From Nocardiopsis sp. NRRL B-16309 (lineage in GTDB: Bacteria; Actinomycetota; Actinomycetes; Streptosporangiales; Streptosporangiaceae): a stretch of 64,000 nt of DNA. This document shows, piece by piece, positions 30,065-64,000 of the stretch. The notes beneath the pieces are model-generated. The model had not been told where the DNA came from. It was given only the letters and a program-made list of their open reading frames with translations, and searched no databases. The first letter of the stretch is position 1. Each line of letters begins with the position of its first letter. The stretch lies in NCBI RefSeq assembly GCF_001279585.1, contig NZ_LGEC01000103.1, positions 22,925 to 86,924 of the forward strand. The letters are read 5' to 3'. Position numbers and translations under genes: made by a program.

Positions 30065-30706
30065 GTGGAGCTGTTCCTGGGTACGACCTTCGGCTTCCCC
30101 GCGGTCCTGTTCACACCCCTGCTCCTCGTGGTGGCCGTCTACTGGGTCCTCGTGCTCGTGGGCGCCACCGACAGCGAACTCCTGGACGCCGTGGACGCCG
30201 ACGGCGCCGCGTCCGGGCTGAGCGCGGTCATGCACAGGGCTCGTCTGGGCGACGTGCCGGTCACCGTCGCGCTCTCGATGCTGATCTGCTCCGCCTGGTT
30301 CGTGAGCATGATGGGAGGCATCATGACCAGTCTCCTCGACACCACCTCCACCCCCCTGCTGCTGGCCCTCGGCGCCGTCGTGCTGCTCATCGCGGTCGTC
30401 GCCGCCTGGGCGGTCACCAGCGGCCTGGTGATGGCCGTCGCCCGGTTCCTGCCGCGCCGCGGCGGCGACTCCAAGCACGAACTCGTCGGTCGCACCTGCG
30501 TGATCCGGATCGGCGAGGCCGGCGAGGACTTCGGCCAGGCCGAGATCACCACCTCCGGCGGTGCCGCGATCACCATCCCCGTGCGCACCACCGGCGGCGA
30601 GGTCCTCCCGCTGGGCAGCACCGCCCTGATCTTCGACCACCGGGCCGAGGGCGACGTCTTCCTGGTGACCCACTTCGACGCGGCCCTGGATCCCGGCCAG
30701 GGCTGA
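30065..30706 (+). CDS. NfeD-like membrane protein (YuaF-type: N-terminal TM helices + C-terminal OB-fold)
   Basis: GTG start follows GGAGGAG. Three TM helices are followed by a beta-rich C-terminus (CVIRIGEAGEDFGQAEIT...GEVLPLGSTALIFD). Lies upstream of a flotillin gene, as yuaF-floT does. Confidence 0.7.
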   Translation: MELFLGTTFGFPAVLFTPLLLVVAVYWVLVLVGATDSELLDAVDADGAASGLSAVMHRARLGDVPVTVALSMLICSAWFVSMMGGIMTSLLDTTSTPLLLALGAVVLLIAVVAAWAVTSGLVMAVARFLPRRGGDSKHELVGRTCVIRIGEAGEDFGQAEITTSGGAAITIPVRTTGGEVLPLGSTALIFDHRAEGDVFLVTHFDAALDPGQG

Positions 30707-30728
30707 CCGGACCCGCCGCCCCGCCCAG

Positions 30729-30840
30729 CGGCCCGACCCGCCCCCACCGCCCGAACCGGCGCCACTTCCCGACCCGCCCCAGCGTCCCGAGCCGGTACCA
30801 CCCGCCCGACCACTCCCACCTGCCCGAACCGGACCGTCGG
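30729..30840. repeat. about 36-bp x3 degenerate tandem repeat (CCCGACCCGCCCC...CCGAACCGG...) in the nfeD-floT intergenic region
   Basis: Three consecutive related units are seen directly: ...cccgacccgcccccaccgcccgaaccggcgccactt / cccgacccgccccagcgtcccgagccggtaccacccg / cccgaccactcccacctgcccgaaccggaccg. Confidence 0.6.
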
Positions 30841-30968
30841 CCGCGCGGAACCGTTGCGCGCCCGACGGCGTCTCATCTCCGGACGAGCCCGAAGCGGCAC
30901 CCCACCGCCCCAGCCCCGGCGCTCGCCCCCGCACCCGCACGTCCCATCTCCCAGAAAGCGACCCCTAC

Positions 30969-33032: not shown

Positions 33033-33043
33033 GGTAGTCCCAC

Positions 33044-44731: not shown

Positions 44732-45358
44732 GCGCACGGGCCCGCGCCGGGCCCGACCTCATCCCACACTCTTCTCCGCCCGGGTCCGACCTCCTGGTCG
44801 GATCCCACGCGCCACCGCCTGCCCCGTGCGTCCCTCCGGGACGCCGTCTTCCCGCGCCAGGCCCGCGCCCGCCTGTCGCACCTCGTCCGGCCGCCCCGAC
44901 GGCCGACGCCCTCGCGGGAGCGGCATCGGCGGCGGGCACCCGCCCGCCCGGCGACACGCCGCCCTCCTCGCGCGGCACAGGGCCAGGGCGTCTTCGTACC
45001 CCCTCCCGCGCACACCACACCCCACGGGAGCCACGCCCCGGGGTGCGACACACCACATCCCCGCGTCTCGGCACGCGACACCGCACGGAGCCGACCACCA
45101 CGGGCACGGCTCCGCGCCCCGGGCCCCGGCGCGTCACACCCTCGCGCGGGCAACGGCTCCGGGCGCGGCTCCGCGCCCCCGCCTCAGACGGTTTCCGCCG
45201 CCGCGGTATCGGACCAACACCTGCAGAGCCACGGATAACATCCGAAATCGTTCCCCAAGGGCGACCTTCAGGGGTTACGGTGAATTTTCGGATGCCCCGG
45301 CACCCCCCGCTCGTCGATGGGCTCCACGTCCTCATCCATCCCTGGCCGCAGAGGACCC

Positions 45359-47854: not shown

Positions 47855-50137
47855 GTGCAGCCACTCGCCTCCGACGACCCCCAGAGCATCGGCCCGCACC
47901 GCCTCCTGGCCCGCCTGGGCGCGGGAGGCATGGGCAAGGTCTACCTCGGGCGCACCCCCGACGGGCACCTGTGCGCTCTCAAGGTGGTCAAGGAGGACCT
48001 GGCCCACGACGCCCAGTTCCGGGCCCGCTTCGCCCGCGAGATCCGTGCCGCCCGGCGCGTGCGCGGCCCCTTCACCCCCGCCGTCGTGGACGCCGGCCCC
48101 GAGGCGCCCGCGCCGTGGATGGCCACCGAGTACGTGCCCGGACCCACCCTCAAGGAGGCCGTCCGGAACGGCGGCCCCTTCCCCGAGCCGTCCCTGCTCG
48201 TCCTCACGCTCGGCCTCGCCCGCGCCCTGGCCACCATCCACGCCGCCGGCCTCATGCACCGCGACCTCAAGCCGAGCAACATCCTGCTCTCGCCGCGCGG
48301 ACCCCAGGTCATCGACTTCGGGATCGCCCGCGCCGTCGAGGGCACCGTGCTCACCCGCACGGGACAGACCTTCGGCACCCCCGCCTACAGCTCCCCGGAA
48401 CAGGTCGTCGGGCAGAACGTCTCCCCGCGCAGCGACTTGTTCTCGATGGCGGGCGCCGTGGTGTTCGCGGCCGGCGGGGAGCCCCCGTTCGGATCCGGAC
48501 CGCCCGTGCGGGTCCTCCGACGCGTGATGTCCGAACAGCCCGGCCTGGACGCGGTCCCCGAGGGCACGCTGCGCGACCTCCTCGCCCGCTGCTTCGCCAA
48601 GGACCCCGCCCACCGGCCCGAGGCCGAGGAGGTGCGTGCCGCGCTGGCCGGTCTGCCGCTGCCCTCGGCGGAGCACGGGTGGCTTCCCGCGCCCGTCACC
48701 GAACAGATCGACCGCCACGCGGGCCGCAGCCGCCGCGCGCAGGAGTCCGACCTCACGACCGCCGACATGAGCGCACCGGATGGTTTCGGCACCGGCTCGA
48801 CCCCGCTGTGGTCGGGCGCGACCGTGCCGGGCGAGTCGACCGTGCCGGGCGGCTCCCCCGTGCCCGGTGAGGACACCGGGGCAGGCCAGGACACCGTGTC
48901 GGGCGGCTCCCCTGTCCCGGGCCGGGGCACCGGACCGAGCGAGACCCGCACCGCCCCCGGCGACGGAACCGGACCGAACGGGACCTCCACCGCCCCCGGC
49001 GCGGCCCCGCCCCGCCCGTGGTGGCGCCGCCGCGCCGCCGTCGTGACCGCGGCCGCCGCGGCCGCGCTGGTCATCGCGGGCGGCGGCGCCCTCCTCCTCA
49101 CCGCCCTCCCCCTCGGCTCACCCGAGGCGCCGGGTACCGGGACCAGCCCCTCCCCCGACCCGTCCGACGGCACCGCCGCGGACGGGGAGGCCCTGTCCGT
49201 CGACCTCAGCGGATTCACCTTCGACCTGGGCTTCTCCGCCGACGGCGAGACCCTGTACGTGTACGGCACGGAGCTCTCGGCCTGGGACTGGCAGGAGGGC
49301 GTGCCGGTCGACGTCTTCGAGCCCTCCCCCCTCGGCGGCGCGATCGGACGGGACGGCCGCATCGTCGCCTCCTACGTCGACCACATCCGTGTCTGGGACG
49401 GCGACAGCGACGACGTCACCGCGCACTTCGGCTCCGCCCACGAGAACGGCGACCGCGGCTACTACCAGACATCCGCCATCACCGGCGACGGCACGAAGGT
49501 GGCCGCCACCGCGGCGGAGGACGGGCAGCCCGGCAACGACCACGTCGTCCAGGTGTGGGACGTGGAGCGCGGGGTCCCGGAGGTCGAGATCCCGCTGGAG
49601 GGCATCCTGTACGCGCTGGAGTTCTCCGCCGACGGCTCCCTGCTCGTGGGCCGCGAGGAGGCCTCCGACGGCTCGGAGCCGCTGGGCGTGTCGGTGTGGG
49701 ACGCCCGGACCGGCGAGCGGCTCCACCACTTCACCGGCGGCTACGGCCGCCAGTTCGCCCTGGCCCCCGAGGGGCGGACGATGGCCGTGAGCGTGCCGGA
49801 CGGCGACGGCGAGGGCCCCGCCGGATACGAGCTGGTCGACCTCGACACCGGCGAGGTGACCGTCCCCCTGGCGGACCTGGACGAGGACCACGCCGGTGTC
49901 ATGGGGATCCGCTTCTCCGCCGACGGCCGCCGGGTCTACGCGCTCACCGGCGGCGGCGCCACCGAATTCGGCAGCGTGTGGGACGCGCGGACGGGCGCTC
50001 TCGTCGACGAGTCCGGCCCGCCGCTCTACGAACCGCTCGCCGAGCAGGACGACGGCGGGCACATCGCCACGATGACCTCGGACGCGCGCGTCCTGATCCT
50101 CGACGCCGACTTCGGCGTCGTCACCGAACTGCACTGA
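47855..50137 (+). CDS. Ser/Thr protein kinase (catalytically intact) - TM - WD40-like beta-propeller (paralog 2)
   Basis: Catalytic motifs are intact (LGAGGMGKVY, ALKVVK, HRDLKPSNIL, DFG, SSPE). A TM segment (AAVVTAAAAAALVIAGGGALLL) precedes the propeller (LGFSADGETLYVYG; LEFSADGSLLVG; IRFSADGRRVYA). Confidence 0.9.
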   Translation: MQPLASDDPQSIGPHRLLARLGAGGMGKVYLGRTPDGHLCALKVVKEDLAHDAQFRARFAREIRAARRVRGPFTPAVVDAGPEAPAPWMATEYVPGPTLKEAVRNGGPFPEPSLLVLTLGLARALATIHAAGLMHRDLKPSNILLSPRGPQVIDFGIARAVEGTVLTRTGQTFGTPAYSSPEQVVGQNVSPRSDLFSMAGAVVFAAGGEPPFGSGPPVRVLRRVMSEQPGLDAVPEGTLRDLLARCFAKDPAHRPEAEEVRAALAGLPLPSAEHGWLPAPVTEQIDRHAGRSRRAQESDLTTADMSAPDGFGTGSTPLWSGATVPGESTVPGGSPVPGEDTGAGQDTVSGGSPVPGRGTGPSETRTAPGDGTGPNGTSTAPGAAPPRPWWRRRAAVVTAAAAAALVIAGGGALLLTALPLGSPEAPGTGTSPSPDPSDGTAADGEALSVDLSGFTFDLGFSADGETLYVYGTELSAWDWQEGVPVDVFEPSPLGGAIGRDGRIVASYVDHIRVWDGDSDDVTAHFGSAHENGDRGYYQTSAITGDGTKVAATAAEDGQPGNDHVVQVWDVERGVPEVEIPLEGILYALEFSADGSLLVGREEASDGSEPLGVSVWDARTGERLHHFTGGYGRQFALAPEGRTMAVSVPDGDGEGPAGYELVDLDTGEVTVPLADLDEDHAGVMGIRFSADGRRVYALTGGGATEFGSVWDARTGALVDESGPPLYEPLAEQDDGGHIATMTSDARVLILDADFGVVTELH

Positions 50138-50151
50138 ACGGGAGACGCCCC

Positions 50152-52290
50152 ATGCAGCCTCTCGACCCCCGCGACCCGCGCCAGGCGGGTCCGTACCGGA
50201 TCGTCGCCCTCCTCGGCGCCGGCGGCATGGGCCGCGTCTACCTCGGCCTGGACCCGGATGGGGCGCCCGCCGCCGTCAAGGTCGTGCGCGCCGAGTACGC
50301 CTACGACCCCGACTTCCGCGCGCGCTTCGCCGGCGAACTCGACCTGCTCTCGCGCGTCCACGGCGCCTACACCCCCCGCGTCCTGGGCGCGGACCCCTCC
50401 GGCCAGATGCCGTGGATGGCCACCGAGTACGTCATGGGGCCGTCCCTGCACGACCTCGTCCTGCGCACGGGGCCGCTCCCCGAGCAGGCCGTCCGGCATC
50501 TGGCGCGCGGTGTGGCCCAGGCGCTGGCGCACGTCCACTCCCTGGGCATGGTCCACCTCGACCTCAAGCCCGGCAACGTCATGGTGTCCGCGGCCGGCCC
50601 CCAGGTCATCGACTTCGGCATCGCCCGCGCCATGGAGGACGCCCAGCGCGGCGGCGAGGGCGCGCAGGACCCAGAGGACACGGACGGCACGGCGAGGGCG
50701 GTCATCGGTACGCCGGGGTACATGTCCCCCGAGCACGTGCGCCAGGAGGAGTGCGGACCGCCGAGCGACGTCTTCGCACTGGGCGGCGTCCTGGTGCACG
50801 CCCTCACCGGCGCCGGTCCGTTCGGCGACGGCCACCCCTCTGCGGTCATGTTCCGCATCACCACACAGGACCCGGTCCTGACCGGCGTTCCCGAGCCCCT
50901 GGTCGGCCTCGTCCGCGCCTGCCTGGACAAGGACCCCGGCCGCCGCCCCACCGCCGCCCAGGTCCTCCAGGCGCTCGGCGGCCCCGCCGCCCCCGCGCCC
51001 GCGGCCTCCGCCTGGCTGCCGCCGCCCGCCGCACGGGCGGTCGACGCCGCCGCCCGCGAGTACCAGGAGGCCATCGCCCAGGCGCCCGCCGCGCACGCGT
51101 CTCCCGGAAGACCCGGCGTACCCGTGACGCCGGGGGCCGCCGGAAGCAGGGGAACCCGGCGGCGCCTGCTGCTCGTCGGCGGCGCCGCCACCGCCCTGCT
51201 CCTGCTCGCCGGAGCGGGCACCTGGACGGCGGTCGCCCTGCGCGGCGGCCCGGGCGGCGGCGCCTCCGGAGCCGAGGCCTCGCCGGAGCCGGACGCCGCG
51301 TGCGACATCACCGCGGACATCGCACCCGAGCTGGCCGAGACCGCCCGGGACCGGCCGACACTGCCCTCGACCTCCGTCAACGCGCCGGAGTTCTCCGCCG
51401 ACGGCCGGGTCCTGGCCGTGGCCGCCACCGAGGCCGTGGTGCTGTGGGACTGGGCGGAGGAGACCGAGCTCGCCCGCGTCGAGGTGGACTCGGAGGAGTT
51501 CATGGTCGCCCCCGCCCTGAGCCCGGACGGCTGCCGCCTGGGCTACCCCGACACCGACGGCGCGCACGTGTACCACCTGCCGACGGGCGAGCACACGGTC
51601 TACCGCGAGGGCTCCGACATCGAGGACATGGCCTTCTCCCCCGACGGCCGGTCCGTGGCCGTGTCCGGCGCCGCCGCCGGCCAGTCCGGAGAAATCCTGC
51701 TCCTGGACCTGGAGTCGGGCGAGATCATCCGGACCTACGAGGAGGTGACCGCGGCCCAGACCATCGCGTTGACCCCGGACGGCGAGCACCTGGCCGCCAT
51801 CAACTTCGAGGGCCTGACGCGGGTCTGGGACGCGGAGAGCGGCGAGGTGCTGTTCGCGGCCGACGACGGCCACTACGGGTTCGGCGACAACCTGTTCCTG
51901 CCCACCGACGACGGGGACCTGCTGTACATGGCGGACGAGGGCCGCCGCATCGTCCACACGAACTACCTGACCGGGGAGGACGTACGCGTGCTCACCACGG
52001 AGGACGACCTGGAGGAGGGGTTCTCGGAGTTCGCGGTGAGCATGGCCGACGACCGGGTCTTCGCGCCCTACACCCCGGGCGAGTTCATCGTGACCGACGA
52101 GGACGCCTACGGCATGAAGGTGTTCGAGCTCTCCAGCGGAGAGGAGCTCACCGCCGACGGGGACGAGGGGTACATGAGCCTGGTCACCGCCCGCCCCGGC
52201 GGCGGGATGCTCGCCGGCTTCCCCTTGGACAACACCCCGCTCTGGCTGGTCGAGCCCGACCCCGTCCGGCTCACCGCGACCCTGGGCTGA
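50152..52290 (+). CDS. Ser/Thr protein kinase, non-RD type - TM - WD40-like beta-propeller (paralog 3)
   Basis: ATG lies 14 bp after paralog 2. Motifs are LGAGGMGRVY, AAVKVVR, HLDLKPGNVM (Arg of HRD lost, Asp kept), DFG and MSPE. Propeller repeats include EFSADGRVLAVAA and MAFSPDGRSVAVSG. Confidence 0.9.
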   Translation: MQPLDPRDPRQAGPYRIVALLGAGGMGRVYLGLDPDGAPAAVKVVRAEYAYDPDFRARFAGELDLLSRVHGAYTPRVLGADPSGQMPWMATEYVMGPSLHDLVLRTGPLPEQAVRHLARGVAQALAHVHSLGMVHLDLKPGNVMVSAAGPQVIDFGIARAMEDAQRGGEGAQDPEDTDGTARAVIGTPGYMSPEHVRQEECGPPSDVFALGGVLVHALTGAGPFGDGHPSAVMFRITTQDPVLTGVPEPLVGLVRACLDKDPGRRPTAAQVLQALGGPAAPAPAASAWLPPPAARAVDAAAREYQEAIAQAPAAHASPGRPGVPVTPGAAGSRGTRRRLLLVGGAATALLLLAGAGTWTAVALRGGPGGGASGAEASPEPDAACDITADIAPELAETARDRPTLPSTSVNAPEFSADGRVLAVAATEAVVLWDWAEETELARVEVDSEEFMVAPALSPDGCRLGYPDTDGAHVYHLPTGEHTVYREGSDIEDMAFSPDGRSVAVSGAAAGQSGEILLLDLESGEIIRTYEEVTAAQTIALTPDGEHLAAINFEGLTRVWDAESGEVLFAADDGHYGFGDNLFLPTDDGDLLYMADEGRRIVHTNYLTGEDVRVLTTEDDLEEGFSEFAVSMADDRVFAPYTPGEFIVTDEDAYGMKVFELSSGEELTADGDEGYMSLVTARPGGGMLAGFPLDNTPLWLVEPDPVRLTATLG

Positions 52291-52323
52291 CCCCCGCCCG
52301 CCCCACACCACCCACCGAGGCCC

Positions 52324-54408
52324 ATGTTCCCCCTGCACCCGCACGATCCGCCGTCCGTCGGCCCCTACCGCCTGCGCGCCCGGCTGGGCGAGGACGCCTG
52401 CGCGCGCGTCTACCTCGGCTCGGCCGCCGACCGGGATCCGGTGGCGGTCCGGGTCGTGCGGCCGGAGTACGCCACCGACCCCGACTTCCGCGCGGCCTTC
52501 GCGCACCTGGTCCAGGGCGCGAACGCGTCGGGCAGCGCGTACGTGTGCCGGGTGCGGGACGCCGACCTGCGCGGCGCGGTCCCCTGGGCGGCCGTGTCCC
52601 GTCCCCTCGGACCGACCCTGTCCGGCCTGATCGGTGCGCACGGCCCGCTGCCCGCGGACGCCCTGCACACGCTCGCCCTGGCCCTCGCCCAGGCGCTGGC
52701 CGACCTGCACGCCGCGCGTCGGGTGCACGGATCGCTGTGGCCGGACGGGGTCCTGGTGACGCGGGAGGGCGCTCTGCTCGCCGACGCCGGGCTGGACCGA
52801 GCGGCGGGCGGAGTCGAGGAGCGGGCGCCGCACCCGTCGTTCGCCGCGCCCGAGGGCGGCGCGTCCGCCGCCACGGACGTGTTCTCGTGGGCGGCGACCC
52901 TGTCGCAGGCGGCCGGCGGCGTCGAGGGGCCCGCCGGGCTTCCCCGCGTGCCGCTCCAGCTGCGCGGACTGGTCGACACCTGCCTCAAGCGCAGCCCCTC
53001 GCTGCGTCCCAGCGCGGCCGACCTGGTCCGCATGCTCGGCGGACCCGTCGAACCGCCGCCCTGGCCGCCCGCCGTGCCGCCCGCCGTGGAGGCGGTCGCC
53101 GCGGAGCAGCGGCGAATCCTGGAGTCGGCCGCCACCGACGGCGCTTCCACCGCTGACGGCGCGTCGGACACCGACGACGCGTCCGCCACCGAAGGGGAGG
53201 CGGGCGGGCGGCGGAGCCCGCGCGGGACGCGCGGCCTGCGGCTCCTGCCGCTGGCCGCCGGAGGGCTGGCGCTCGTGCTCGTCGCGGGGGCCGGGGCCTA
53301 CTGGGCGTCCGCCCGCTCGGGTACGGACGGTTCCGAGGAGCCCGCCGGGCCGGACGGGATGATCACCGACGCGGGCTGCCTGGAGGACCGCGGCTACCCG
53401 GTCCCGGACGGGGAGGTGGACGGGGCGGCGGCCGAGGCCTCCGCGACGGCCTTCAGCCCCGACGGGGACGTCCTCGCGGTCGCCACCGACGAGTACGGGC
53501 TCATGGTGTGGGACTGGCGCACCGGCGAGGAGGTGGCGCGCCCGGCGGCACGGACCGACGCCCTGGTGCCTCCGGTGTTCGCGCCGATCGGGTGCATGGT
53601 CGCGGCTCCGGCCCCGGTCGAGTACCCCGGCGAGGAGGTCCCGGTCCAGGTCGCGCACACCTACGACCTGCCGTCGGGGACCACGACCGAGCACCTGGGC
53701 CCGCAGCGGGGGCCGGACACGCCCGAGGGCGGCTGGTCGACCGAGCCGCGAGCGGTGCGGGGCCTGGCGTTCAGCCCGGACGGGTCGCTGCTCGCGATCG
53801 GGCTGGAGGGGCCGCTCGGGGCGATCGAGGCGGACAACGTGGGCCTGCTCGACACCACCGGCGGCGGGGAGGAGGCCTCGATCACCGGCTCCGGAGCGTA
53901 CGGCATGGCGTTCCCCGACGACGGCCGCCTCGTCAGCGCGACCTCCGACACGGTGACCGTGTGGGACGTCGGGACGGGCGAGGAGCTGCACCGGGTGCGC
54001 GGCACCACGAGGGCGTCCTTCGCGGCGATCCCCGGCACCGACGAGATCGTCTACGCCGCCGGCGACCGCCTCGTGCGGTGGGACTACGCCGAGCGGGAGC
54101 CGCTGGGCGAGTTCCCGATGCCCGAGCTCGCCGACGCCGGGCCCTCGACCGGGGTCGTCGCCGTGGACCCCGGGCGGTCCCGGCTCTTCGTCAGCGCGCG
54201 GGTGGTCGAGGACGACGAGTACGTCGACGCGAGCCGGGTGTGGGACCTGGACACGGGCGAGGAGGCCGTCGGCGGGGACGGGGAGCGGGTGCGGTTCAGG
54301 CACGTGTCCTTCCATCCCGACGGGGAGGTCCTGGCGATGGTCACCTCGGAGGGCAGGGTGGTCATCGCCGACGCGGAGACGCTGGAGGCCGGGGACCCGC
54401 TGTTCTGA
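52324..54408 (+). CDS. Ser/Thr pseudokinase - TM - WD40-like beta-propeller (paralog 4)
   Basis: The Gly-loop is degenerate (LGEDACARV), beta3 Lys is Arg (VAVRVVR), no HRD motif (RVHGSLWPDG) and DFG is DAG. Propeller repeats include TAFSPDGDVLAVAT and LAFSPDGSLLAIG. Confidence 0.85.
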   Translation: MFPLHPHDPPSVGPYRLRARLGEDACARVYLGSAADRDPVAVRVVRPEYATDPDFRAAFAHLVQGANASGSAYVCRVRDADLRGAVPWAAVSRPLGPTLSGLIGAHGPLPADALHTLALALAQALADLHAARRVHGSLWPDGVLVTREGALLADAGLDRAAGGVEERAPHPSFAAPEGGASAATDVFSWAATLSQAAGGVEGPAGLPRVPLQLRGLVDTCLKRSPSLRPSAADLVRMLGGPVEPPPWPPAVPPAVEAVAAEQRRILESAATDGASTADGASDTDDASATEGEAGGRRSPRGTRGLRLLPLAAGGLALVLVAGAGAYWASARSGTDGSEEPAGPDGMITDAGCLEDRGYPVPDGEVDGAAAEASATAFSPDGDVLAVATDEYGLMVWDWRTGEEVARPAARTDALVPPVFAPIGCMVAAPAPVEYPGEEVPVQVAHTYDLPSGTTTEHLGPQRGPDTPEGGWSTEPRAVRGLAFSPDGSLLAIGLEGPLGAIEADNVGLLDTTGGGEEASITGSGAYGMAFPDDGRLVSATSDTVTVWDVGTGEELHRVRGTTRASFAAIPGTDEIVYAAGDRLVRWDYAEREPLGEFPMPELADAGPSTGVVAVDPGRSRLFVSARVVEDDEYVDASRVWDLDTGEEAVGGDGERVRFRHVSFHPDGEVLAMVTSEGRVVIADAETLEAGDPLF

Positions 54409-54439
54409 GCACGGTTCCTCCCACGGGCGGGAGCGGCCG

Positions 54440-54725
54440 GGCACGCCCGGTGATCGGGAGTGGTGGGGAGCGGCCAGAGGACCCGGCGCGGGACCCGATC
54501 GGTGAACAGCCGGACCGGCCGGTGGCCGGTGGCCTGTGGCCTGTGGCCGGAAAGCGGCAGCGGGACCCGGTCGGCGAACGGCCGGGGCCTCCGTGCGGGG
54601 CCACGGCGGATGGTCGGGAGTGCTGGGGAACGGCCGGAGGACAGGGGTGCGGAACCCGGTCGGCGAACGGCTTCGGCCACCGGACCGCTCATGGCCGGTC
54701 GTGGCCGATCGTGGCCGGGCCCGCC
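54440..54725. repeat. repeat-rich intergenic DNA: two copies of an about 70-bp unit (about 80% identical) and (GGCCGGT/GGCCTGT)n microsatellite
   Basis: Copy A sits at 54450-54520 (gtgatcgggagtggtggggagcggccagaggacccggcgcgggacccgatcggtgaacagccgg) and copy B at 54609-54680. A partial copy lies at 54551-54590, and ggccggtggccggtggcctgtggcctgtggccgg at 54517-54550. Confidence 0.7.
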
Positions 54726-54790
54726 GGGGACGGGATCGCGGCCGATAGCGTAGGGCGACCGAGCCACGTCTGACGAGGAGACCCGGGACC

Positions 54791-55315
54791 ATGCTGAACT
54801 CCGTCACCCGACACGTCGGCGGGACGGGCGAGCCCGACCGCGCCCTCCGCAGCCCGGCGCTGGCCGCGCTCACCCGCCTGATCGAGACCGCGGGCGCGTC
54901 GGCCGGTTCCGCGTCCGCCTTCGGACCACCCGTCCGGTCCGGCGAGACCACGGTGATCCCGGTGGCGCGGGTCAGCCTCCTGGCCAGCATGGGCGGGGGG
55001 TCGAGCCGCGTCCCGCGCGGCGACGGGGCCGGCGGACTGGGCCTGGCCCGCGTCCGCCCCTCGGGGTACATCGTCCTCGACGGCTCGGGGACCTCCTTCC
55101 GCCCCATCCGCCAGCCCGCGGCGATGCTCGCCATCCCCCTCGCGGCGATCGCGGCCGTCGCGGCGACACGGATCGTCGGCGTGTCGGTGCGGGAGGCGCG
55201 CCGCCGCCGGAAGGTCGCGGCCCGCCAGGCCGCCGCCACCGCCGCCGTGACCGCCGCCGCGCCCGCTCACGCGGCCGGCTGTGCCGCGGAAGCGGTCACA
55301 GAGCCCGCGACGTAG
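54791..55315 (+). CDS. GerW/YtfJ family spore-associated protein
   Basis: Motifs GETTVIPVARVSLLASMGGG...GGLG...PSGYIVLDG match the YtfJ/GerW family pattern. Confidence 0.7.
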   Translation: MLNSVTRHVGGTGEPDRALRSPALAALTRLIETAGASAGSASAFGPPVRSGETTVIPVARVSLLASMGGGSSRVPRGDGAGGLGLARVRPSGYIVLDGSGTSFRPIRQPAAMLAIPLAAIAAVAATRIVGVSVREARRRRKVAARQAAATAAVTAAAPAHAAGCAAEAVTEPAT

Positions 55316-56393: not shown

Positions 56394-57119
56394 TCAGCGT
56401 GCGGCGGAACCGCCGGGCCCGTTCCCGGGACCACGCCCGCTCCCACGCCCGTTCTCCCGCCCGTTCCCGGCCCGGACCCGGCGGGTCTCGTAGGCCCACA
56501 TCGCGATCTCGACGCGGTTGCGGGCACCGAGCTTGGCCATGAGGCTGGCGATGTGCGTCTTGACCGTGCTGAGCGTGATGTGGAAGTCGTCGGAGATCTC
56601 GCGGTTGGTCCGGCCCCGGGCCACGGCGGCCAGCACCTGTTCCTCGCGGTCCGTGAGCGCCTCGACCGGTTGCACGGGTGCGGCCGGCGCCGAGTCGGCG
56701 AACGCCCCGAGCAGGCGCACGGTGACGTTCGGGGCGATGAGCGCGTCGCCGTCGGCGGCGGCGCGGACGGCCTGCGCGAGCAGCGCCGGTCCCGCGTCCT
56801 TGAGCAGGAACCCCCGCGCTCCCGCCCCCAGCGCCGCGTACACGTACTCGTCGAGGTCGAAGACCGTGATGACGACGACCGCCATCGGATCCGCCACGCC
56901 GGGTCCCGCCAGCTCCCGGGTGGCCTCGATGCCGTCCAGCACGGGCATCCGGATGTCGAACAGGCACACGTCGGGCCGCAAGCGCCGCGCTAGCTCCACC
57001 GCCCGCCGCCCGTCCGCGGCCTGCCCGACGACCTCGATGCCCGGCTGGGCGTCGAGGATCATCGTCAGCCCGGTACGGACGATCTCCTGGTCGTCGGCCA
57101 CCACCACCCGGACGGTCAC
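56394..57119 (-). CDS. two-component response regulator, NarL/LuxR family
   Basis: REC domain (VVVADDQEIVRTGL...DVCLFDIRMP) plus LuxR HTH (LTDREEQVLAAVARGRTNREISDDFHITLSTVKTHIASLMAKLG). GTG at 57119 overlaps the kinase stop as GTGA. Confidence 0.9.
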   Translation of the reverse strand: MTVRVVVADDQEIVRTGLTMILDAQPGIEVVGQAADGRRAVELARRLRPDVCLFDIRMPVLDGIEATRELAGPGVADPMAVVVITVFDLDEYVYAALGAGARGFLLKDAGPALLAQAVRAAADGDALIAPNVTVRLLGAFADSAPAAPVQPVEALTDREEQVLAAVARGRTNREISDDFHITLSTVKTHIASLMAKLGARNRVEIAMWAYETRRVRAGNGRENGRGSGRGPGNGPGGSAAR

Positions 57120-58255
57120 TCCCGGGCCCCGTTCCTGGGCAGCACGGCCGTCACCGTCCAGCCCCGGCCGGGGTCCGGAGCGGCCGTGCACGTGCCGCCG
57201 AGCAGGTCGGCGCGCTCGGCCATCCCGATCAGCCCGTAGCCCGGAGCCGACGTCGGCCGCAGCGGCCCCGTGTCGCCGTCGTCGCGCACGCACAGGCGCA
57301 CCGACGTGTCGTCCGCTTCGACGCGCACGTCGATCCGGGTCGCGTCGCGGGCGTGCCGCCGGGCGTTGGTGACCGCCTCCTGGGCGAGCCGGTAGACCGC
57401 CGTCCCGAGCGACGGGGCCAGCCCGTCGACGTCGCCGGTGACCGCCACGTCCACCGCCGGACCGGGCCCCGCCGTCGCGGCGAGCGCGGCCAGGTCACCG
57501 ATCCCGGGACTGGGCTCCAGGTCCGCCGGACGGCCCCTGCGCAGCACGCGGACCATGGCGCGCATCTCGGCGAGGGCGCGCGAGGCCTCGGACTCGACCA
57601 CCGTGAGCGCCTCCACCGCCGCGCCCGGCCGCGACTCCGCCGTCGCCAGGCCCGCCTGTGCCCGGATCGCCACCGCTGACACGTGGTGGGCGACCGTGTC
57701 GTGCAGGTCGCGGGCCACGCTCTCCCGCTCCAGCATCCGGGCCTGTTCGAGTTCCCGGGCCCGGGACCCGGCCCGGTACCGCAGCGCCGTCCCCAGCGCC
57801 CCGGCCGCGCAGAGCACCGCCAGGCTCGGCGGCACGTCCGCGGCGGCGGTGTACCCCAGGGCGCTCCAGAGCACGGCCTTGCCCACGACCACCAGGGCCC
57901 CGGCCACGATCTCCCGCCCGGACGCCCAGCGGAACAGGGAGTACACCAGCACCAGCATGTACGCGATCGTGTACGTCTCGGTGGCCTCGCCGCCGGTGGC
58001 CAGCGGCACCAGGGCCGACACGGCGAACCCGGCCACGAGCACGGCCAGCGGGTGGGAGCGCCGCCACAGCAGCAGCGGCGCGAGCCCGGCGGTGACGGCC
58101 ACCCCGAGCACCCGCCAGGGCATGTCCGGCCGCAGGACCCCCTCCAGCAGGGCCGCCGCCACGAGCACCGCCACGAGCGCCCAGTCCCACCATCCGCGCG
58201 CGGGCGGACGGGGCGGGCGCGGCTCGTCCCACACCGATCGAAGGAGGTCGTGCAC
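57116..58255 (-). CDS. sensor histidine kinase (HisKA_3/HATPase_c), partner of the LuxR-type regulator
   Basis: Four N-terminal TM segments, H-box VARDLHDTVAHHVSAVAIRAQAG and ATP-lid GYGLIGMAERADLLGG. GTG start follows GAGGGGG. Confidence 0.9.
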   Translation of the reverse strand: MHDLLRSVWDEPRPPRPPARGWWDWALVAVLVAAALLEGVLRPDMPWRVLGVAVTAGLAPLLLWRRSHPLAVLVAGFAVSALVPLATGGEATETYTIAYMLVLVYSLFRWASGREIVAGALVVVGKAVLWSALGYTAAADVPPSLAVLCAAGALGTALRYRAGSRARELEQARMLERESVARDLHDTVAHHVSAVAIRAQAGLATAESRPGAAVEALTVVESEASRALAEMRAMVRVLRRGRPADLEPSPGIGDLAALAATAGPGPAVDVAVTGDVDGLAPSLGTAVYRLAQEAVTNARRHARDATRIDVRVEADDTSVRLCVRDDGDTGPLRPTSAPGYGLIGMAERADLLGGTCTAAPDPGRGWTVTAVLPRNGARE

Positions 58256-58332
58256 CCCCTCAGCCTACGAGGCCGCGCCCCGCCCCGGATCGGCCCAAAG
58301 TACGAGAGCCCGGAGAGCCGGGAGAGCCGGCC

Positions 58333-59673
58333 TCAGCTCGCACCGGTCATCCTGGCCACGAAGTCGAACAGGCCCATCGCCCAGGCGAAGACCGCGCACA
58401 TGGCGATGATGACGACGACCTCGGTCCAGTTGAGGACCCGCCGCAGGGACGCGCGGGGCACGTCGGCCAGGCGCACCCAGCTCAGGATCCCCGTCACCAT
58501 CCCCGCGAGCAGGGCCGCCACCGGCAGCCACGGTGACAGGAACCCGTACTCGCCGATGACCGCCACACCCGCCGCGCCCAGACCGAGCACGCCCGCCAGA
58601 CGCAGGGGGAGCACGTGCCGGATACGGTCGAAGAGGCGCGAGCGCAGCACGAGGAGAACGGCGAGCAGTCCGCACAGGATCAGGTCGGGAAGCCCCTGGG
58701 CCATGAACGCCAGCATCGCGGTCACCGCTCCGCCGCTCACCGCCACACCCATGACGATGCCCAGCAGCAACCGGTCGCTGTTGGAGTAGGTGTCCTCGAA
58801 CCTGTCCGTGGAGACCTGGCCGGAACGGCCCACCTCGTAGTCCAGCCCGGACAGCCCGCCCATCACCATCGCCACGCGCGGGAGCGCGCCGACGCACAGT
58901 GTCAGCGCGATCCCCATGGCCCGGACGCCCTGGGTCGGCTCGACGAAGAGCCCGACCAGCACCAGCACACCGGCGGCCACGGCGACCACGCCGAGACCGG
59001 CGATGTAGGCCAGCCCGGTCTCGTGCATCGCCCAGCCGATGACGGCCACCAGCAGTGCTCCCGACATCGCGAACGCGCCGACGACGAGCGGGGCCGCACT
59101 GGTCACGAGGCCGGCCGCGAGCACCGCGGTCAGCCCGCCCCACACACAGGCCGTCGCGAACAGGACGTGGGCGACCGCGGGCAGCGGCCTGCGGGCCGCC
59201 AGCAGCATGACCGCGACGGTGAACATGGTGCCCACGGCGGCCACACCGAGGTGGCCCACGGACGGGCTGAGCCACATCATCAGCCCGAGCATGAGAAGGG
59301 GGCCGATTCCGGCCACGAGAAGTCCGAAGGAGAGCGTGGTGGTGTGGTTCCACGTCCACGTCGTCTCGTCGACCCGGTCCTCGACCGCGCCACGGACGTC
59401 GTCCACGAACTCGGGGCGGCTCGGGGCGGTGCGACGGTTCAGGAGCAGGACGTCGCCGTCGTAGATCCCGGCGCTCTCCAGCGGCTCCTCCGGAGGCACG
59501 GGTCCGCCGTCGACGGTGCTGAGCGTCCAGGCCGCGGGCTCGCTGCTCGCCTCCTCCGGCGCGCAGACCTCGATGATGCGGGGCATCAGGGCCGCCACCG
59601 GCACCGTGCCCGGCAGGGCCAGATCCGCCCAGCGCTGCGGCCCTGTGACGGTGACCCGGCAGTATCCACTCAC
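58333..59673 (-). CDS. eccD: type VII secretion system integral membrane protein EccD
   Basis: N-terminal ubiquitin-like domain (CRVTVTGPQRWADLALPGTVPVAALMPRIIEVC...GIYDGDVLLL) followed by 11 TM helices. GTG start follows AAAGGAAC. Confidence 0.85.
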   Translation of the reverse strand: MSGYCRVTVTGPQRWADLALPGTVPVAALMPRIIEVCAPEEASSEPAAWTLSTVDGGPVPPEEPLESAGIYDGDVLLLNRRTAPSRPEFVDDVRGAVEDRVDETTWTWNHTTTLSFGLLVAGIGPLLMLGLMMWLSPSVGHLGVAAVGTMFTVAVMLLAARRPLPAVAHVLFATACVWGGLTAVLAAGLVTSAAPLVVGAFAMSGALLVAVIGWAMHETGLAYIAGLGVVAVAAGVLVLVGLFVEPTQGVRAMGIALTLCVGALPRVAMVMGGLSGLDYEVGRSGQVSTDRFEDTYSNSDRLLLGIVMGVAVSGGAVTAMLAFMAQGLPDLILCGLLAVLLVLRSRLFDRIRHVLPLRLAGVLGLGAAGVAVIGEYGFLSPWLPVAALLAGMVTGILSWVRLADVPRASLRRVLNWTEVVVIIAMCAVFAWAMGLFDFVARMTGAS

Positions 59674-59980
59674 GCCAATGGTTCCTTTGTCGTCGTTCGG
59701 GGGTTACGACCGCCCCGGCCTGCGGTCGCCGAGAATCAGGCGATGCGCCGTGTCCGCGAGGCTATCGCTACCGTGACAGGACGGGTACTGGCAGCCGTGG
59801 GCGAGCGGACCGCCCCGGGATCGCACTCATCGGGTTCCTCCGACCACTGCGTGGTGATGTGCGCCCCGAAGGCCGACTTCGACACCGATCACATGTTTCA
59901 CGGTGGTTGCGAGGCTACCCTTGGTGTAGCCCAGCACCCAGACACCAGCCCCCCACCAGGTGGACCGGAAAGAGAGCACC

Positions 59981-62900
59981 GTGGCGACGAGAGCGGTTCC
60001 CCGACCAGCTCGGAGCACACCCCCATCACCAGGCGACAAACCCCTGGTGATCGCGACCCCGCCGCAGATGCCGGAGAACGCTCCCGCGGGCAGCTCCGGC
60101 GCGATGATCATCATGCCGATCATCACCGGCTCGGGCTCCCTCCTCATGTCCATCACGATGGGGCACCGGCCGCTCATGATGGTGGCGGGAGTGATGATCA
60201 TGGCGGCGAGCGTGATCGTCGGCATCATCATGTTCGTCGCGCAGCACAACGGCCCCCGCAAGCGCATCCGCGAACAGCGGGAGCGCTACGTCGACTACCT
60301 CGACCAGCTGCGGGAGATCGTCCGCGAGGTCGCCGCCACCCAGCGCGCCGACAGCGCCTTCCGGCACCCCGCCCCGGACCTGCTCACGGAGCCGGCCCGG
60401 TCCCCGGCGCGCAGGTGGGAGCGCCGCGCCTCCGACCCCGACTTCCTCGACGTCCGCGTGGGATCGGGCGTCCGCCCCCTGGCCAGGCGCCTGGTGCTCA
60501 AGGTGGACACCTCCTCCCCCCTGATCGTCTACGACCCCGTCTGCCAGGGATCGGCCGACCAGCTCATCGAGCTGTACGCGGACGTGCCCGAGATGCCGTT
60601 GGTCGTCCCGTTGACCCGGCACAGCGTGATCTCGATCGTCGGCGACCGCGACGCCGGCCGCGGACTGGTGCGCGCGATGATCGCGCAGCTGGCGGTCTTC
60701 CACTCCCCGCACGACCTGCGCATCGGTGTGGTCCGCGACCACAAGGTCCGCACGCTGTGGGAGTGGCTCAAATGGCTCCCCCACAACGGCTTCGAGGACG
60801 CCAAGGACGGGCCGATGCCCGCCCGTTTCGTCTCGGGCAACACTGTCCAGGTCGCCGAACTGCTCGCCGACGAGATCGAACGGCGCACGGTCGACCTGCA
60901 GCGCCGCCGGGGCAAGCCCCCCGGCCCGGGAACGCAGCGGCTCGTCGTGGTCCTGGACGGCGAGCACCAGTCGACCCTGTCGGGTCTGCACGCCGAGCCG
61001 CCCGTCACCGACCTGGCGAGCCTCGGCATCCACGTCATCACACTGGTCGCGGACCGGCGTGAGGAGCCCGAGTCCGTGAGCCTGCGGCTCATGGTCCAGG
61101 CCGACGGAACGCTCACCGAGGACACGGAGAACCCCGGAGCCCGTGAGGACGCCGCCCACGCGCCCCTGTCCGGCACCGCGGACCGGGCGGGTGTCGCCCA
61201 TCTGACGATGCTCGCGCGCCTGCTCGCCCCGTACGGCATCTCGGTCACCGACGGCGACGGCGCCATGCACGAGACCGTCGGTCTTCCGGAGATCCTGGGC
61301 GTGCCCGACGTCGCCGAACTGGACACACGCCGGACCTGGCGCAGGCGCAGCACGGGCGACTACCTGCGGGTGCCCATCGGTGTGGGCCCCAGCGGCAACA
61401 CGGTGCTGCTGGACCTGAAGGAGTCGGCGTTCGGCGGCATGGGACCGCACGGCCTGGTGGTCGGAGCGACGGGTTCCGGCAAGTCGGAGATGCTGCGCAC
61501 CATGGTGGCGTCCCTGGTGATCAACCACTCCCCCGAGCACCTGGCCCTGCTCCTGGTGGACTTCAAGGGCGGAGCGACCTTCGCCGACACCGACCGGCTC
61601 CCGCACAGCGCCGGGCTGATCACCAACCTGGCCGACGACGACTCGCTGGTCGTCCGGTTCCGCGAGGCGACCTTCGGCGAGCTGGTCCGGCGCCAGCAGC
61701 TCCTCAAGGAGGCGGGCAACCTGCCCAACCTGCACGCCTACGAGGCGGCGCGGGAGAGCAACCCCGCGCTGGAGCCGCTGCCGCACCTGCTCATCATCAT
61801 CGACGAGTTCTCCGAACTGCTGACCGCCCACCCGGACTTCGCGGAGCTGTTCGTGGCGATCGGCCGCATCGGCCGGTCGATCGGTGTGCACCTGCTGCTG
61901 GCGACCCAGCGCCTGGAGTCGGGCAAGATCAAGGGCCTGGAGTCCCACCTGTCCTACCGGGTGGGTCTGCGCACGTTCTCCGAGGCCGAGAGCCGGGAGG
62001 CGATCGGCGTCGGCGACGCCTACCACCTGCCCCCCGAACCGGGTTCCGGCTACCTCAAGGTGGACACGTCCGTCTTCGAGCGCTTCAAGGCCGCCATGGT
62101 CTCCCAGCCCTACGTCCCGCCCGCCAAGGAGGAGAAGGAGGAGCACGAGCCGGTTCTGCCGCTGCTCTCCTTCAACGGCCTGGCCAAGGTGACGGGCGCG
62201 GACTCGCTCGCCGAGTCCCTCATGGGGGCGATCAAGGACAAGTCGCAGGAGAAGCAGAAGACGGAGAAGCGCACCACCCTCCAGGTCACCGTGGACCGGC
62301 TGGTGGCCTCGGGAGCCGACCCGGTGCGCCCGGTCTGGCTCCCCCCGCTCCCGGAGGCGCTGACCTTCGACTCCGTCCTGAACGATCTCGGGGAGGGCGG
62401 CGACGCCCTGGAGGGCCGGGGGACGGAGCCGCACCCGGCCGAGGCCAAGGCCGTCTTCGGACTCACCGACATCCCCCGCGAACAGCGCGTGGTACCCGCC
62501 GAGATGGACTTCACCGGCGGCGAGGGCAACGTCGTCATCCTGGGCGGCCCCCAGTCCGGCAAGTCCACCCTGCTGCGGACGATGATCACGAGCCTGGCGT
62601 GGCGGTACCCGCCCGGACGGGTCGCGGTGTACGCGATCGACTTCGGCGGCGGCGCGCTCCAGGCGATGGACGAACTCCCGCACGTGGCCGGCGTCGCCGG
62701 CCGGGCGGACCCGGAGCGCGTCCAGCGGATCCTCACCGACGTGGCGGGGCACCTGGACCGGCGCCAGCGCGTGTTCAGGAAGCACAAGCTGGACTCCCCG
62801 GCGGCACTGCGCCAGGCCCGGGCGGACGGCAGGGTGCCGTCCAGCGTCGTGGGCGACCTGTTCCTGATGATCGACGGGTGGTCGGCGGTCCGCGACGCCT

Positions 62901-64000
62901 TCGACGCGGCCGACGACTTCCTGATGGACATCGCGACGCGCGGGCCGTCCCTGGGCGTGCACACCATCCTCACCGGCGCGGCGTCGTCGCAGGTGAGATC
63001 CAGGTTGCAGGCCCTGTTCGGCGGCCGTTTCGAGCTGAGGCTGAGCGACCCGATGGACTCGGGCATCGGCCGCAAGATCGCCGAGGAAATCCCCAAGGAC
63101 ACCCCGGGCCGCGGTCTGTCCTCCAGCGAGAACCACACTCACGTGGCCCTGCCCAGGGTGGACGGCATCGCCGACGACGAGGACCTCACCAGCGGCATCC
63201 ACGACCTCATCGCCCGGGTCAAGGAGCGCTGGCCGCAGGAGGCCGTCCAGGGCGTTCGGACCCTCCCGCTCAAGGTGGAGCTGGACGACCTCCTCAAGGG
63301 ACGCAAGGGCGCCAAGGGCAGGTCCCGGGAGCTGGTCCTGGGCATGGGCGAGAGCTCGCTCGCCCCGGTCACCACCAACCTGTCGCGGGACCCGCACCTG
63401 GTGGTCTTCGGCGACCCGCAGTCCGGCAAGTCCACGCTGCTGCGCGGGCTGGTCAAGCAGATCGTCCAGCGCCCCGCCAAGGAGCTGGGGATCGTCATGG
63501 TCGACTTCCGGCGCTCCCACCTGGAGCTGGTACCGGAGGACCACCTGCTGGCCTACTGCACGACGGCGGAACAGACCAAGGCTGTCGCGGACAACCTGGC
63601 GGGTTCGCTCAAGCAGCGCCTTCCGGGGCCGGACGTGACGCCGAAGCAACTGCGGGAGCGCAGCTGGTGGCAGGGCCTGGACCTGTACATCGTCGTGGAC
63701 GACATGGACATGATCGCCTCGCGCACCAACCCGCTCGCGCCGCTGGCCCCCTTCATTCCGCAGGGCGCCGACCTGGGGCTGCACGTCATCGCCGCGCGCC
63801 GCACGGGCGGTACCGCGCGGGCGATGTTCGAGCCGGTGCTCCAGTCGCTGAGCGACATGGCCACGCCGGGCATGCTGTTCTCCGGTGACCGCATGGAGGG
63901 GCGGCTGGCCAACGGGACGGCCTCCAAACCGCTCCCGCAGGGCCGCGCACAGCTGGCTCTGCGGGGCAAGCGCCCGGACCTGGTACAGGTCGGCTGGAGC
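59981..64000 (+). CDS. eccC: type VII secretion system ATPase EccC (FtsK/SpoIIIE family, three P-loop domains), 3'-truncated by window end
   Basis: Frame 2 is open from 59930 to the window end. N-terminal PPQMPENAPAGS motif and two TM segments, then three Walker A motifs (GATGSGKSEMLRTMV, GGPQSGKSTLLRTMI, GDPQSGKSTLLRGLV). The start is estimated at GTG 59981; GTG 59960 and ATG 60068 are alternatives. It is absent from the ORF track because no stop occurs in the window. Confidence 0.9.
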   Translation, partial: MATRAVPRPARSTPPSPGDKPLVIATPPQMPENAPAGSSGAMIIMPIITGSGSLLMSITMGHRPLMMVAGVMIMAASVIVGIIMFVAQHNGPRKRIREQRERYVDYLDQLREIVREVAATQRADSAFRHPAPDLLTEPARSPARRWERRASDPDFLDVRVGSGVRPLARRLVLKVDTSSPLIVYDPVCQGSADQLIELYADVPEMPLVVPLTRHSVISIVGDRDAGRGLVRAMIAQLAVFHSPHDLRIGVVRDHKVRTLWEWLKWLPHNGFEDAKDGPMPARFVSGNTVQVAELLADEIERRTVDLQRRRGKPPGPGTQRLVVVLDGEHQSTLSGLHAEPPVTDLASLGIHVITLVADRREEPESVSLRLMVQADGTLTEDTENPGAREDAAHAPLSGTADRAGVAHLTMLARLLAPYGISVTDGDGAMHETVGLPEILGVPDVAELDTRRTWRRRSTGDYLRVPIGVGPSGNTVLLDLKESAFGGMGPHGLVVGATGSGKSEMLRTMVASLVINHSPEHLALLLVDFKGGATFADTDRLPHSAGLITNLADDDSLVVRFREATFGELVRRQQLLKEAGNLPNLHAYEAARESNPALEPLPHLLIIIDEFSELLTAHPDFAELFVAIGRIGRSIGVHLLLATQRLESGKIKGLESHLSYRVGLRTFSEAESREAIGVGDAYHLPPEPGSGYLKVDTSVFERFKAAMVSQPYVPPAKEEKEEHEPVLPLLSFNGLAKVTGADSLAESLMGAIKDKSQEKQKTEKRTTLQVTVDRLVASGADPVRPVWLPPLPEALTFDSVLNDLGEGGDALEGRGTEPHPAEAKAVFGLTDIPREQRVVPAEMDFTGGEGNVVILGGPQSGKSTLLRTMITSLAWRYPPGRVAVYAIDFGGGALQAMDELPHVAGVAGRADPERVQRILTDVAGHLDRRQRVFRKHKLDSPAALRQARADGRVPSSVVGDLFLMIDGWSAVRDAFDAADDFLMDIATRGPSLGVHTILTGAASSQVRSRLQALFGGRFELRLSDPMDSGIGRKIAEEIPKDTPGRGLSSSENHTHVALPRVDGIADDEDLTSGIHDLIARVKERWPQEAVQGVRTLPLKVELDDLLKGRKGAKGRSRELVLGMGESSLAPVTTNLSRDPHLVVFGDPQSGKSTLLRGLVKQIVQRPAKELGIVMVDFRRSHLELVPEDHLLAYCTTAEQTKAVADNLAGSLKQRLPGPDVTPKQLRERSWWQGLDLYIVVDDMDMIASRTNPLAPLAPFIPQGADLGLHVIAARRTGGTARAMFEPVLQSLSDMATPGMLFSGDRMEGRLANGTASKPLPQGRAQLALRGKRPDLVQVGWS

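Follow-up and report, generated by a model that had tools for sequence, protein, structure and literature searches.

A divergent eccD-eccC gene pair of Nocardiopsis sp. NRRL B-16309 probably encodes two core membrane components of an ESX-4-related type VII secretion system

Among the type VII secretion systems (T7SS) of actinobacteria (T7SSa), ESX-4 is considered the ancestral mycobacterial/actinobacterial form (PMC4791881). In ESX-4 loci, as described in that work and as seen in a Pseudonocardia ESX-4-like locus (L012), eccC and eccD diverge from a short spacer, EccC is a single fused protein and eccA, espG and pe/ppe genes are lacking; mycP and eccB lie immediately after eccD, while rv3446c and two Pfam-positive WXG100 genes lie after eccC. 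EccB and EccE are components of the ESX-3 and ESX-5 complexes (PDB 6SGW, 6UMM, 7NP7 and 7B9S), on which MycP forms a cap. For EccC itself, there are solved structures from Thermomonospora curvata (PDB 4NH0 and 4N1A; Rosenberg et al. 2015, as cited in PMC6954902 and PMC11154593). Here we describe a locus at the right end of a 64,000-nucleotide stretch of Nocardiopsis sp. NRRL B-16309 (contig NZ_LGEC01000103.1, positions 22,925 to 86,924; hereafter, the window), in which eccD (58333..59673, minus strand) and eccC (59981..64000, plus strand) are transcribed in opposite directions from a spacer of 307 bp (59674..59980). Like ESX-4, this locus has the divergent arrangement and the fused EccC and is without eccA, espG and pe/ppe. 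Based on the results below, the pair can be interpreted as coding for two components of the membrane core of an actinobacterial T7SSa from the ESX-4-related lineage that is typified by T. curvata EccC (probability approximately 0.8). The locus is an ordinary member of T7SSa that is compact, non-canonical in its gene content and already annotated automatically.

The eccD gene starts with a GTG codon preceded by AAAGGAAC and encodes a type VII secretion integral membrane protein of 446 aa (stop codon included in the interval); the GC contents of its third and second codon positions (GC3 and GC2) are 0.93 and 0.50, respectively. Pfam identifies a YukD domain (PF08817) at residues 4-78 (E-value: 7e-21) and the EccD transmembrane (TM) domain (PF19053) at residues 117-440 (E-value: 1.6e-17), and the NCBIfam model TIGR03920 is matched with 115.7 bits (cut-off 94.95) from profile position 1 to 453 of 455. 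The protein therefore consists of an N-terminal cytoplasmic ubiquitin-like (Ubl) domain of the YukD/EsaB type (residues 4-80; 59434..59664, minus strand) and a membrane domain (residues ~110-432; 58378..59346, minus strand) with 11 TM helices, a number given by hydropathy and by the AlphaFold 2 model alike. Homologues of this protein already carry the EccD name in public annotation, with one source calling a Nocardiopsis homologue "EccD4".

The AlphaFold 2 model of EccD (mean predicted local distance difference test score (pLDDT) 87.3) comprises a beta-grasp domain, a linker helix and the 11 TM helices. The Ubl domain is built from strands 4-10, 15-21, 49-53 and 75-80 and a helix at residues 26-37, while the TM helices span residues 110-135, 140-161, 165-188, 195-216, 220-243, 246-272, 289-323, 328-347, 351-375, 377-399 and 408-432. 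When this model was used for a fold search, the 13 best PDB matches were all EccD3 or EccD5 chains from cryo-electron microscopy structures of ESX-3 and ESX-5 (E-values: 5.5e-15 to 2.9e-11), on which it superposes over its full length with TM-scores of 0.66-0.72; the next-ranked matches were Ubl domains of EccD5 and EccD1 and SUMO/ubiquitin. A sequence-only PDB search with EccD returned no EccD match, although the fold search did. The leftward EccD with a ubiquitin-like N-terminal domain and 11 TM helices that had been proposed in the initial annotation is thus borne out by Pfam, TIGR03920, hydropathy and the structural model.

On the plus strand, positions 59930 to 64000 form an open reading frame, and no other frame stays open up to the window end. 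The preferred start of eccC is the GTG at 59981, located behind GGAAAGAGAG, because the peptide encoded from this codon is kept in relatives and the EccCa profile aligns from residue 25; alternative starts are present at 60047, 60068 and 60104, and public EccC annotations begin at residue 23 or 42 instead. From this start, the window holds 1340 codons (GC3 0.94), corresponding to residues 1-1340 of approximately 1344. The gene does run off the window, as previously noted, but merely by ~4 codons and a stop: base 64000 corresponds to base 13954 of the N. aegyptia locus L007, where the stop codon ends at base 13969, 15 nt further on, and the C-terminus of EccC in relatives reads ...DLVQVGWSEPPA followed by the stop codon (...VQVGWSEPPA). 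Its absence from the list of open reading frames (ORFs) had been attributed to the want of a stop codon within the window, and this explanation is correct, as the ORF listing omits frames that run off an end. The protein is 100% identical to P0001, which is named [quoted passage not shown] by NCBI.

EccC has two N-terminal TM helices (residues ~40-91, with hydropathy peaks at 40-60 and 62-91; 60098..60253, plus strand), a degenerate DUF/ATPase-like domain and three FtsK/SpoIIIE P-loop domains. The core of ATPase domain 1 (61463..61810, plus strand) extends from Walker A GATGSGKS (residues 495-502) to Walker B LLIIIDEF (residues 603-610). Domain 2 has Walker A GGPQSGKS (residues 855-862; 62543..62566, plus strand) and a degenerate Walker B, LFLMIDGW, while domain 3 has Walker A GDPQSGKS (residues 1144-1151; 63410..63433, plus strand) and Walker B IVVDD. 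In a motif scan of the three domains, the catalytic Asp-Glu pair of Walker B was found in domain 1 only. Among solved structures, the best relative of EccC is the T. curvata protein (4NH0), which scored 854 bits in an alignment covering residues 190-1337, with domain 1 aligning to the T. curvata D1 domain; EccC5 scored 454 bits in the same PDB search. The two proteins are alike in being a single fused polypeptide, in which a DUF domain is joined to three ATPase domains, and in having a canonical Walker A together with a "DE" Walker B in domain 1 only (D1 as described in PMC11154593). A rightward EccC with three P-loop domains had been proposed initially, and both the Walker A positions (495, 855 and 1144) and the alignment to the T. 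curvata protein agree with this.

As the three domains all belong to the Pfam family FtsK_SpoIIIE (three matches, E-value: 1.5e-82), EccC could in principle be a DNA translocase acting in cell division or in conjugation in the manner of Streptomyces TraB. This is extremely improbable. The FtsK model NF007615 gave 44.5 bits against a cut-off of 1566, whereas TIGR03924 (EccCa) gave 809.4 bits (cut-off 509.15) and TIGR03925 (EccCb) gave 728.4 bits (cut-off 346.55) and was aligned to its last position (564 of 564); moreover, the tandem array of three ATPase domains and the pairing with EccD also speak against a DNA translocase. The search with T7SS models that had been recommended for both proteins was therefore positive, with the curated cut-offs passed for EccD, EccCa and EccCb. 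The lowest E-values from hidden Markov model searches at the locus reach 1e-243, far beyond chance.

The universal core of an FtsK-like ATPase and a ubiquitin-like module is shared with T7SSb of Bacillota (EssC/YukB) and with T7SSc-j (PMC11217815). Unlike in T7SSb, the EssC model TIGR03928 falls below its cut-off (577.7 bits against 778.4) and no FHA domain was matched in EccC by Pfam; unlike in both T7SSb and T7SSc-j, the Ubl domain is fused to the polytopic EccD rather than free-standing.

Both eccD and eccC are intact, with every family-defining domain present. Relative to their N. aegyptia counterparts, EccD is 96% and EccC 98% identical, and the ratios of nonsynonymous to synonymous substitution rates (dN/dS) are 0.10 for eccD and 0.06 for eccC, so both genes are maintained by strong purifying selection. 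These values bear on whether the pair could be an orphan, decaying remnant of an ESX locus that no longer acts as a secretion machine, an idea suggested by the lack of other machine genes seen nearby. Such decay is very unlikely given the full-length ORFs, the intact Walker motifs and the low dN/dS (0.06-0.10), and given that the pair is kept across dozens of Nocardiopsis species and that pairs of this architecture recur in Actinomadura, Actinoplanes and Mumia.

To the left, eccD forms the border of the secretion locus, as had been assumed, because no T7SS genes were found on that side: EccB, mycosin (no Peptidase_S8 or TIGR03921 match), EccE and WXG100 proteins were absent among the scanned or inspected proteins of the window, which covers 58 kb upstream of the pair. 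Most gene identities in the window were taken from reading the translations, with ten unclear proteins also scanned against Pfam.

The sequence beyond 64000 was inferred from N. aegyptia (L006/L007), the closest genome read, which shows 94% DNA identity over window positions 56460-64000 and has the same gene order as the window to the left of eccD. In the 10 kb after eccC, N. aegyptia encodes, in this order, a 386-aa lipoprotein without a family match (which looks beta-propeller-like by eye), small proteins of 92 and 108 aa, a 574-aa membrane protein that carries a PQQ/BamB-type propeller, a protein of 862 aa containing the Pfam domain TPR_23 ("EspA-like"), a lipoprotein of 173 aa, a further propeller protein and a second protein with TPR_23. 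Four other Nocardiopsis genomes begin likewise, with a lipoprotein, a small protein and a TPR_23 protein of ~885 aa, and in a fifth, N. tropica (L004), the small protein lies directly 3' of eccC. The TPR_23 match in these neighbourhoods is well above its cut-off (55.7 bits against 27). Secreted or lipid-anchored beta-propeller proteins (PQQ_2/BamB-like) and small lipoproteins are abundant in these Nocardiopsis T7SS neighbourhoods (for example, L007 14149-23969, L001 11614-12990 and L004 2-1216), where they are interleaved with pairs of hairpin and TPR_23 proteins.

The initial annotation had predicted a canonical, contiguous ESX locus, with eccB, mycP, eccE and esxAB just beyond 64000. EccC and EccD are genuine, and in ESX-4-like loci mycP and eccB are close by. 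Nevertheless, no EccB, mycosin, EccE, Rv3446c or WXG100 was detected by Pfam and NCBIfam in the 10 kb after eccC of N. aegyptia, and the same proteins were likewise without a match in the 5.7 kb after eccC of the four other Nocardiopsis genomes. Peptidase_S8 and TIGR03921 had no match in the flanks of L001-L005 or of N. aegyptia, and EccE (PF11203, TIGR03923) had none in any scanned protein from the window or the flanks of its relatives. Some ESX-4 variants also lack eccE, so this gene is not strictly defining. Tblastn searches with the Pseudonocardia EccB, MycP and Rv3446c gave no match in any retrieved Nocardiopsis or related locus. The null results for EccB and mycosin are meaningful because the same scans recover both in the Pseudonocardia control locus, where EccB (209.9 bits), mycosin (290 bits) and Rv3446c were detected. 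The position after eccD, which in ESX-4 holds mycP and eccB, is here taken by a two-component system, and the positions after eccC, which in ESX-4 hold rv3446c and the WXG100 genes, are occupied in the relatives of the window by beta-propeller (lipo)proteins and EspA/EspC-like pairs. EccB, EccE and MycP, all part of the ESX-3 and ESX-5 complexes, were not seen near the window pair.

A point in favour of classical Esx genes nearby comes from Nocardiopsis sp. FR4, in which an EsxB-like fragment cut by the end of the locus (L005 4-267, minus strand) is present ~5.6 kb downstream of eccC; it is 36% identical to the EsxB-like protein of L008 (E-value: 6e-14). It is therefore possible that in some Nocardiopsis genomes the TPR_23 gene is followed by classical Esx genes. 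Weighing these observations together, we consider a canonical ESX locus directly after 64000 very unlikely. The looser claim of the initial annotation, that a T7SS locus starts here, stands, while its strict version, with other ESX components following, fails on the content of the relatives. The useful correction is that the locus does not run on into a textbook ESX cluster.

A WXG100 pair had also been expected downstream, and for this expectation the outcome is divided: no protein matches PF06013 or TIGR03930, but the ~108-aa proteins of the relatives are predicted to form helical hairpins that resemble WXG100 proteins in fold. Seventy-one proteins make up the 108-aa family, nearly all of them from Nocardiopsaceae, and none is encoded within the window. 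One member, P0121, comes from Nocardiopsis sp. NRRL B-16309 itself; its longest contig is 235,062 bp, matching the figure listed for the EccC protein P0001. The AlphaFold model of the 108-aa protein (pLDDT 78.7) has helices at residues 8-42 and 46-94 separated by a turn and followed by a disordered tail. WXG100 proteins dominate its top fold matches in the PDB (EsxA of G. thermodenitrificans, EsxB of B. anthracis, EsxA of S. agalactiae and S. aureus, and EsxEF of M. abscessus), with TM-scores of up to 0.83, a root-mean-square deviation of ~2.3 Å and weak Foldseek E-values. As the family has no sequence match to PF06013, TIGR03930 or PF10824, its link to WXG100 is drawn solely from the predicted fold. 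Some UniRef entries label members of this family "ESX-1 secretion-associated" or "EspC".

A PW...(I/V)NF motif with an invariant Asn106 is conserved in the tail of the 108-aa family and is the candidate export signal. Similar ends, ...SRx(I/V)N(V/A), occur in the Esx-like proteins of related loci. The signal of T. curvata EsxB (VQALLNG), a protein from a different genus, does not occur in the 108-aa proteins of Nocardiopsis, which end in PW..(I/V)NF. In the relatives, the ~100-aa hairpin gene adjoins a larger gene for a TPR_23 "EspA-like" protein, as in the EspA/EspC (and EspE/EspF) arrangement of mycobacterial ESX-1. Unlike in EspA/EspC, the large partner is ~860 aa rather than ~400 aa, the order is small-then-large and neither PF10824 nor PF06013 is matched. 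The same pairing of a small protein with a TPR_23 protein of ~840 aa is found in Actinomadura, where the large partner is 26-28% identical over ~690 aa. By analogy with EspC/EspA, the ~108-aa and ~860-aa TPR_23 proteins are probably substrate pairs.

Several points weigh against our assignment of the pair to a T7SSa. EccB is present in every T7SSa complex solved so far and may therefore be required for a working machine. The content downstream of eccC is inferred from the sequence of a proxy, N. aegyptia, together with P0121 of the window strain. Furthermore, no sequence model from Pfam, NCBIfam or the PDB recognises the 108-aa and other small proteins, and the Foldseek E-values of the 108-aa protein are 0.35 or worse. 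Weak Foldseek E-values are usual for simple hairpins.

If EccD and EccC act as their relatives do, a mechanism can be proposed from the ESX-3, ESX-5 and T. curvata structures. EccD dimers would form a membrane scaffold, with their Ubl domains gripping EccC at its cytoplasmic stalk/DUF region, consistent with the described role of EccD dimers in scaffolding the membrane complex and of their Ubl domains in holding EccC (PMC11217815). EccC would assemble as a central hexameric pore and motor, as in described systems in which domain 1 is the active ATPase (PMC11154593). In the Nocardiopsis protein, hydrolysis would be carried out by domain 1 with its "DE" Walker B, while the degenerate domains 2 and 3 would bind ATP and have a regulatory role. 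The C-terminal tail of the small hairpin substrate would then dock on domain 3, the domain that binds the substrate C-terminal signal in relatives (PMC6954902), leading to multimerisation and activation of EccC. The hairpin protein and its large partner would subsequently leave the cell as a folded complex.

Related divergent eccD-eccC pairs were examined in a second, paralogous Nocardiopsis locus and in Actinomadura, Actinoplanes and Mumia, with EccC proteins 50-67% identical to that of the window; identity to the Pseudonocardia ESX-4-like EccC is only ~38%. Within ±10 kb of these pairs, no EccB, mycosin or EccE was identified using precomputed Pfam assignments and direct scans of unassigned large proteins. 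These loci carry pairs of Esx-like proteins of ~100 aa and a small single-TM protein, and often also ParA/MinD-like ATPase or MoxR/DUF58/transglutaminase genes. The single-TM protein (116-138 aa) is encoded beside eccD or the esx pair (L008 6539-6955, L009 ~4230-4457 and L010 6731-7081, all minus strand) and was not found in the type of locus seen in the window. Its motif, ERYxLxADxLRRRQLxAALL…W..R..WP followed by a TM segment, resembles the N-terminal helix and TM segment of EccB by eye. It was rejected as a "mini-EccB", however, as hhalign aligned the right stretch with an E-value of 0.037 and a probability of 1.4%, and a PDB profile search recovered no EccB.

It is possible, though on the present evidence doubtful, that these loci represent a widespread actinobacterial lineage in which the membrane machine consists of EccC and EccD alone and exports EspC/EspA-like hairpin-plus-TPR pairs instead of classical Esx dimers. 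The absence of EccB, MycP and EccE holds for the flanks scanned. The literature search found no paper on the Nocardiopsis system and none tying Nocardiopsis, Thermobifida or Streptosporangiales to EccB or mycosin. If such a machine does exist, it would be a minimal T7SSa, intermediate between the WXG-FtsK systems of Bacillota and ESX-4. Were EccB, MycP and EccE truly absent genome-wide, these soil actinomycetes would be running a stripped-down T7SSa, which would help to separate the mycobacterial parts required for crossing the cytoplasmic membrane from those that serve the mycomembrane. Structural work would gain a simpler target than ESX-1 to ESX-5, and the neighbouring hairpin-plus-TPR pairs would be new candidate substrates.

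The spacer between eccD and eccC, which had been estimated at about 300 bp and measures 307 bp, presumably contains both promoters and both ribosome-binding sites. Across Nocardiopsis, ~110 bp beside eccC and ~30 bp beside eccD are conserved, and the spacer is 149-187 bp long in other Nocardiopsis genomes. An insertion of ~150 bp in the middle of the spacer (59700-59870) is common only to the window and N. aegyptia; its identity between the two (82.6%) is lower than that of the enclosing aligned stretch (94% over 56460-64000). The insertion has no repeat copies, no Rfam match and no obvious ORF, and a scan of the full 307 bp identified no sigma-70 consensus promoter, credible terminator or Rfam family. 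Small ORFs within the spacer were dismissed as high-GC artefacts based on frame-specific GC3.

Directly downstream of eccD, after a gap of 77 bp and on the same strand, lies a gene for a HisKA_3 histidine kinase (57116-58255, minus strand), the stop codon of which is overlapped by the GTG of a NarL/LuxR response regulator gene (56394-57119, minus strand). These two genes may be co-transcribed with eccD. The kinase/regulator pair is found beside eccD only in the window and in N. aegyptia, and not in five other Nocardiopsis loci.

To the left of the regulator are genes for a DUF2306 membrane protein and a YtfJ-like protein, and then four tandem paralogous genes encoding Ser/Thr kinases with WD40 beta-propellers (45317-47533, 47855-50137, ~50152-52290 and 52324-54408, all plus strand). 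A kinase-WD40 array also adjoins the eccD side in three other Nocardiopsis loci (L001, L004 and L007), and Ser/Thr kinases flank the eccD-eccC pair in L008 and L009. Kinases are common in T7SS clusters (PMC11217815), and by analogy the array may be functionally linked to the T7SS pair.

The GC content of the window is 66-77%, with 71-72% over the eccD-eccC locus. Two long antisense ORFs on the minus strand, one of 1252 aa opposite eccC (60026-63784) and one of 1737 aa opposite real genes further left (50026-55239), were rejected as high-GC artefacts, as frame-specific GC3 shows which strand is coding. The rest of the window is made up of housekeeping or unrelated genes, including dnaK-grpE-dnaJ, clpB, transporters and a flotillin/DUF3686 cluster. 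This last cluster (30065-38068, plus strand) encodes a membrane protein, a flotillin-like (SPFH/Band-7) protein of 687 aa and a protein of 1674 aa that combines DUF3686, DUF7902 and an AAA_5 ATPase domain.

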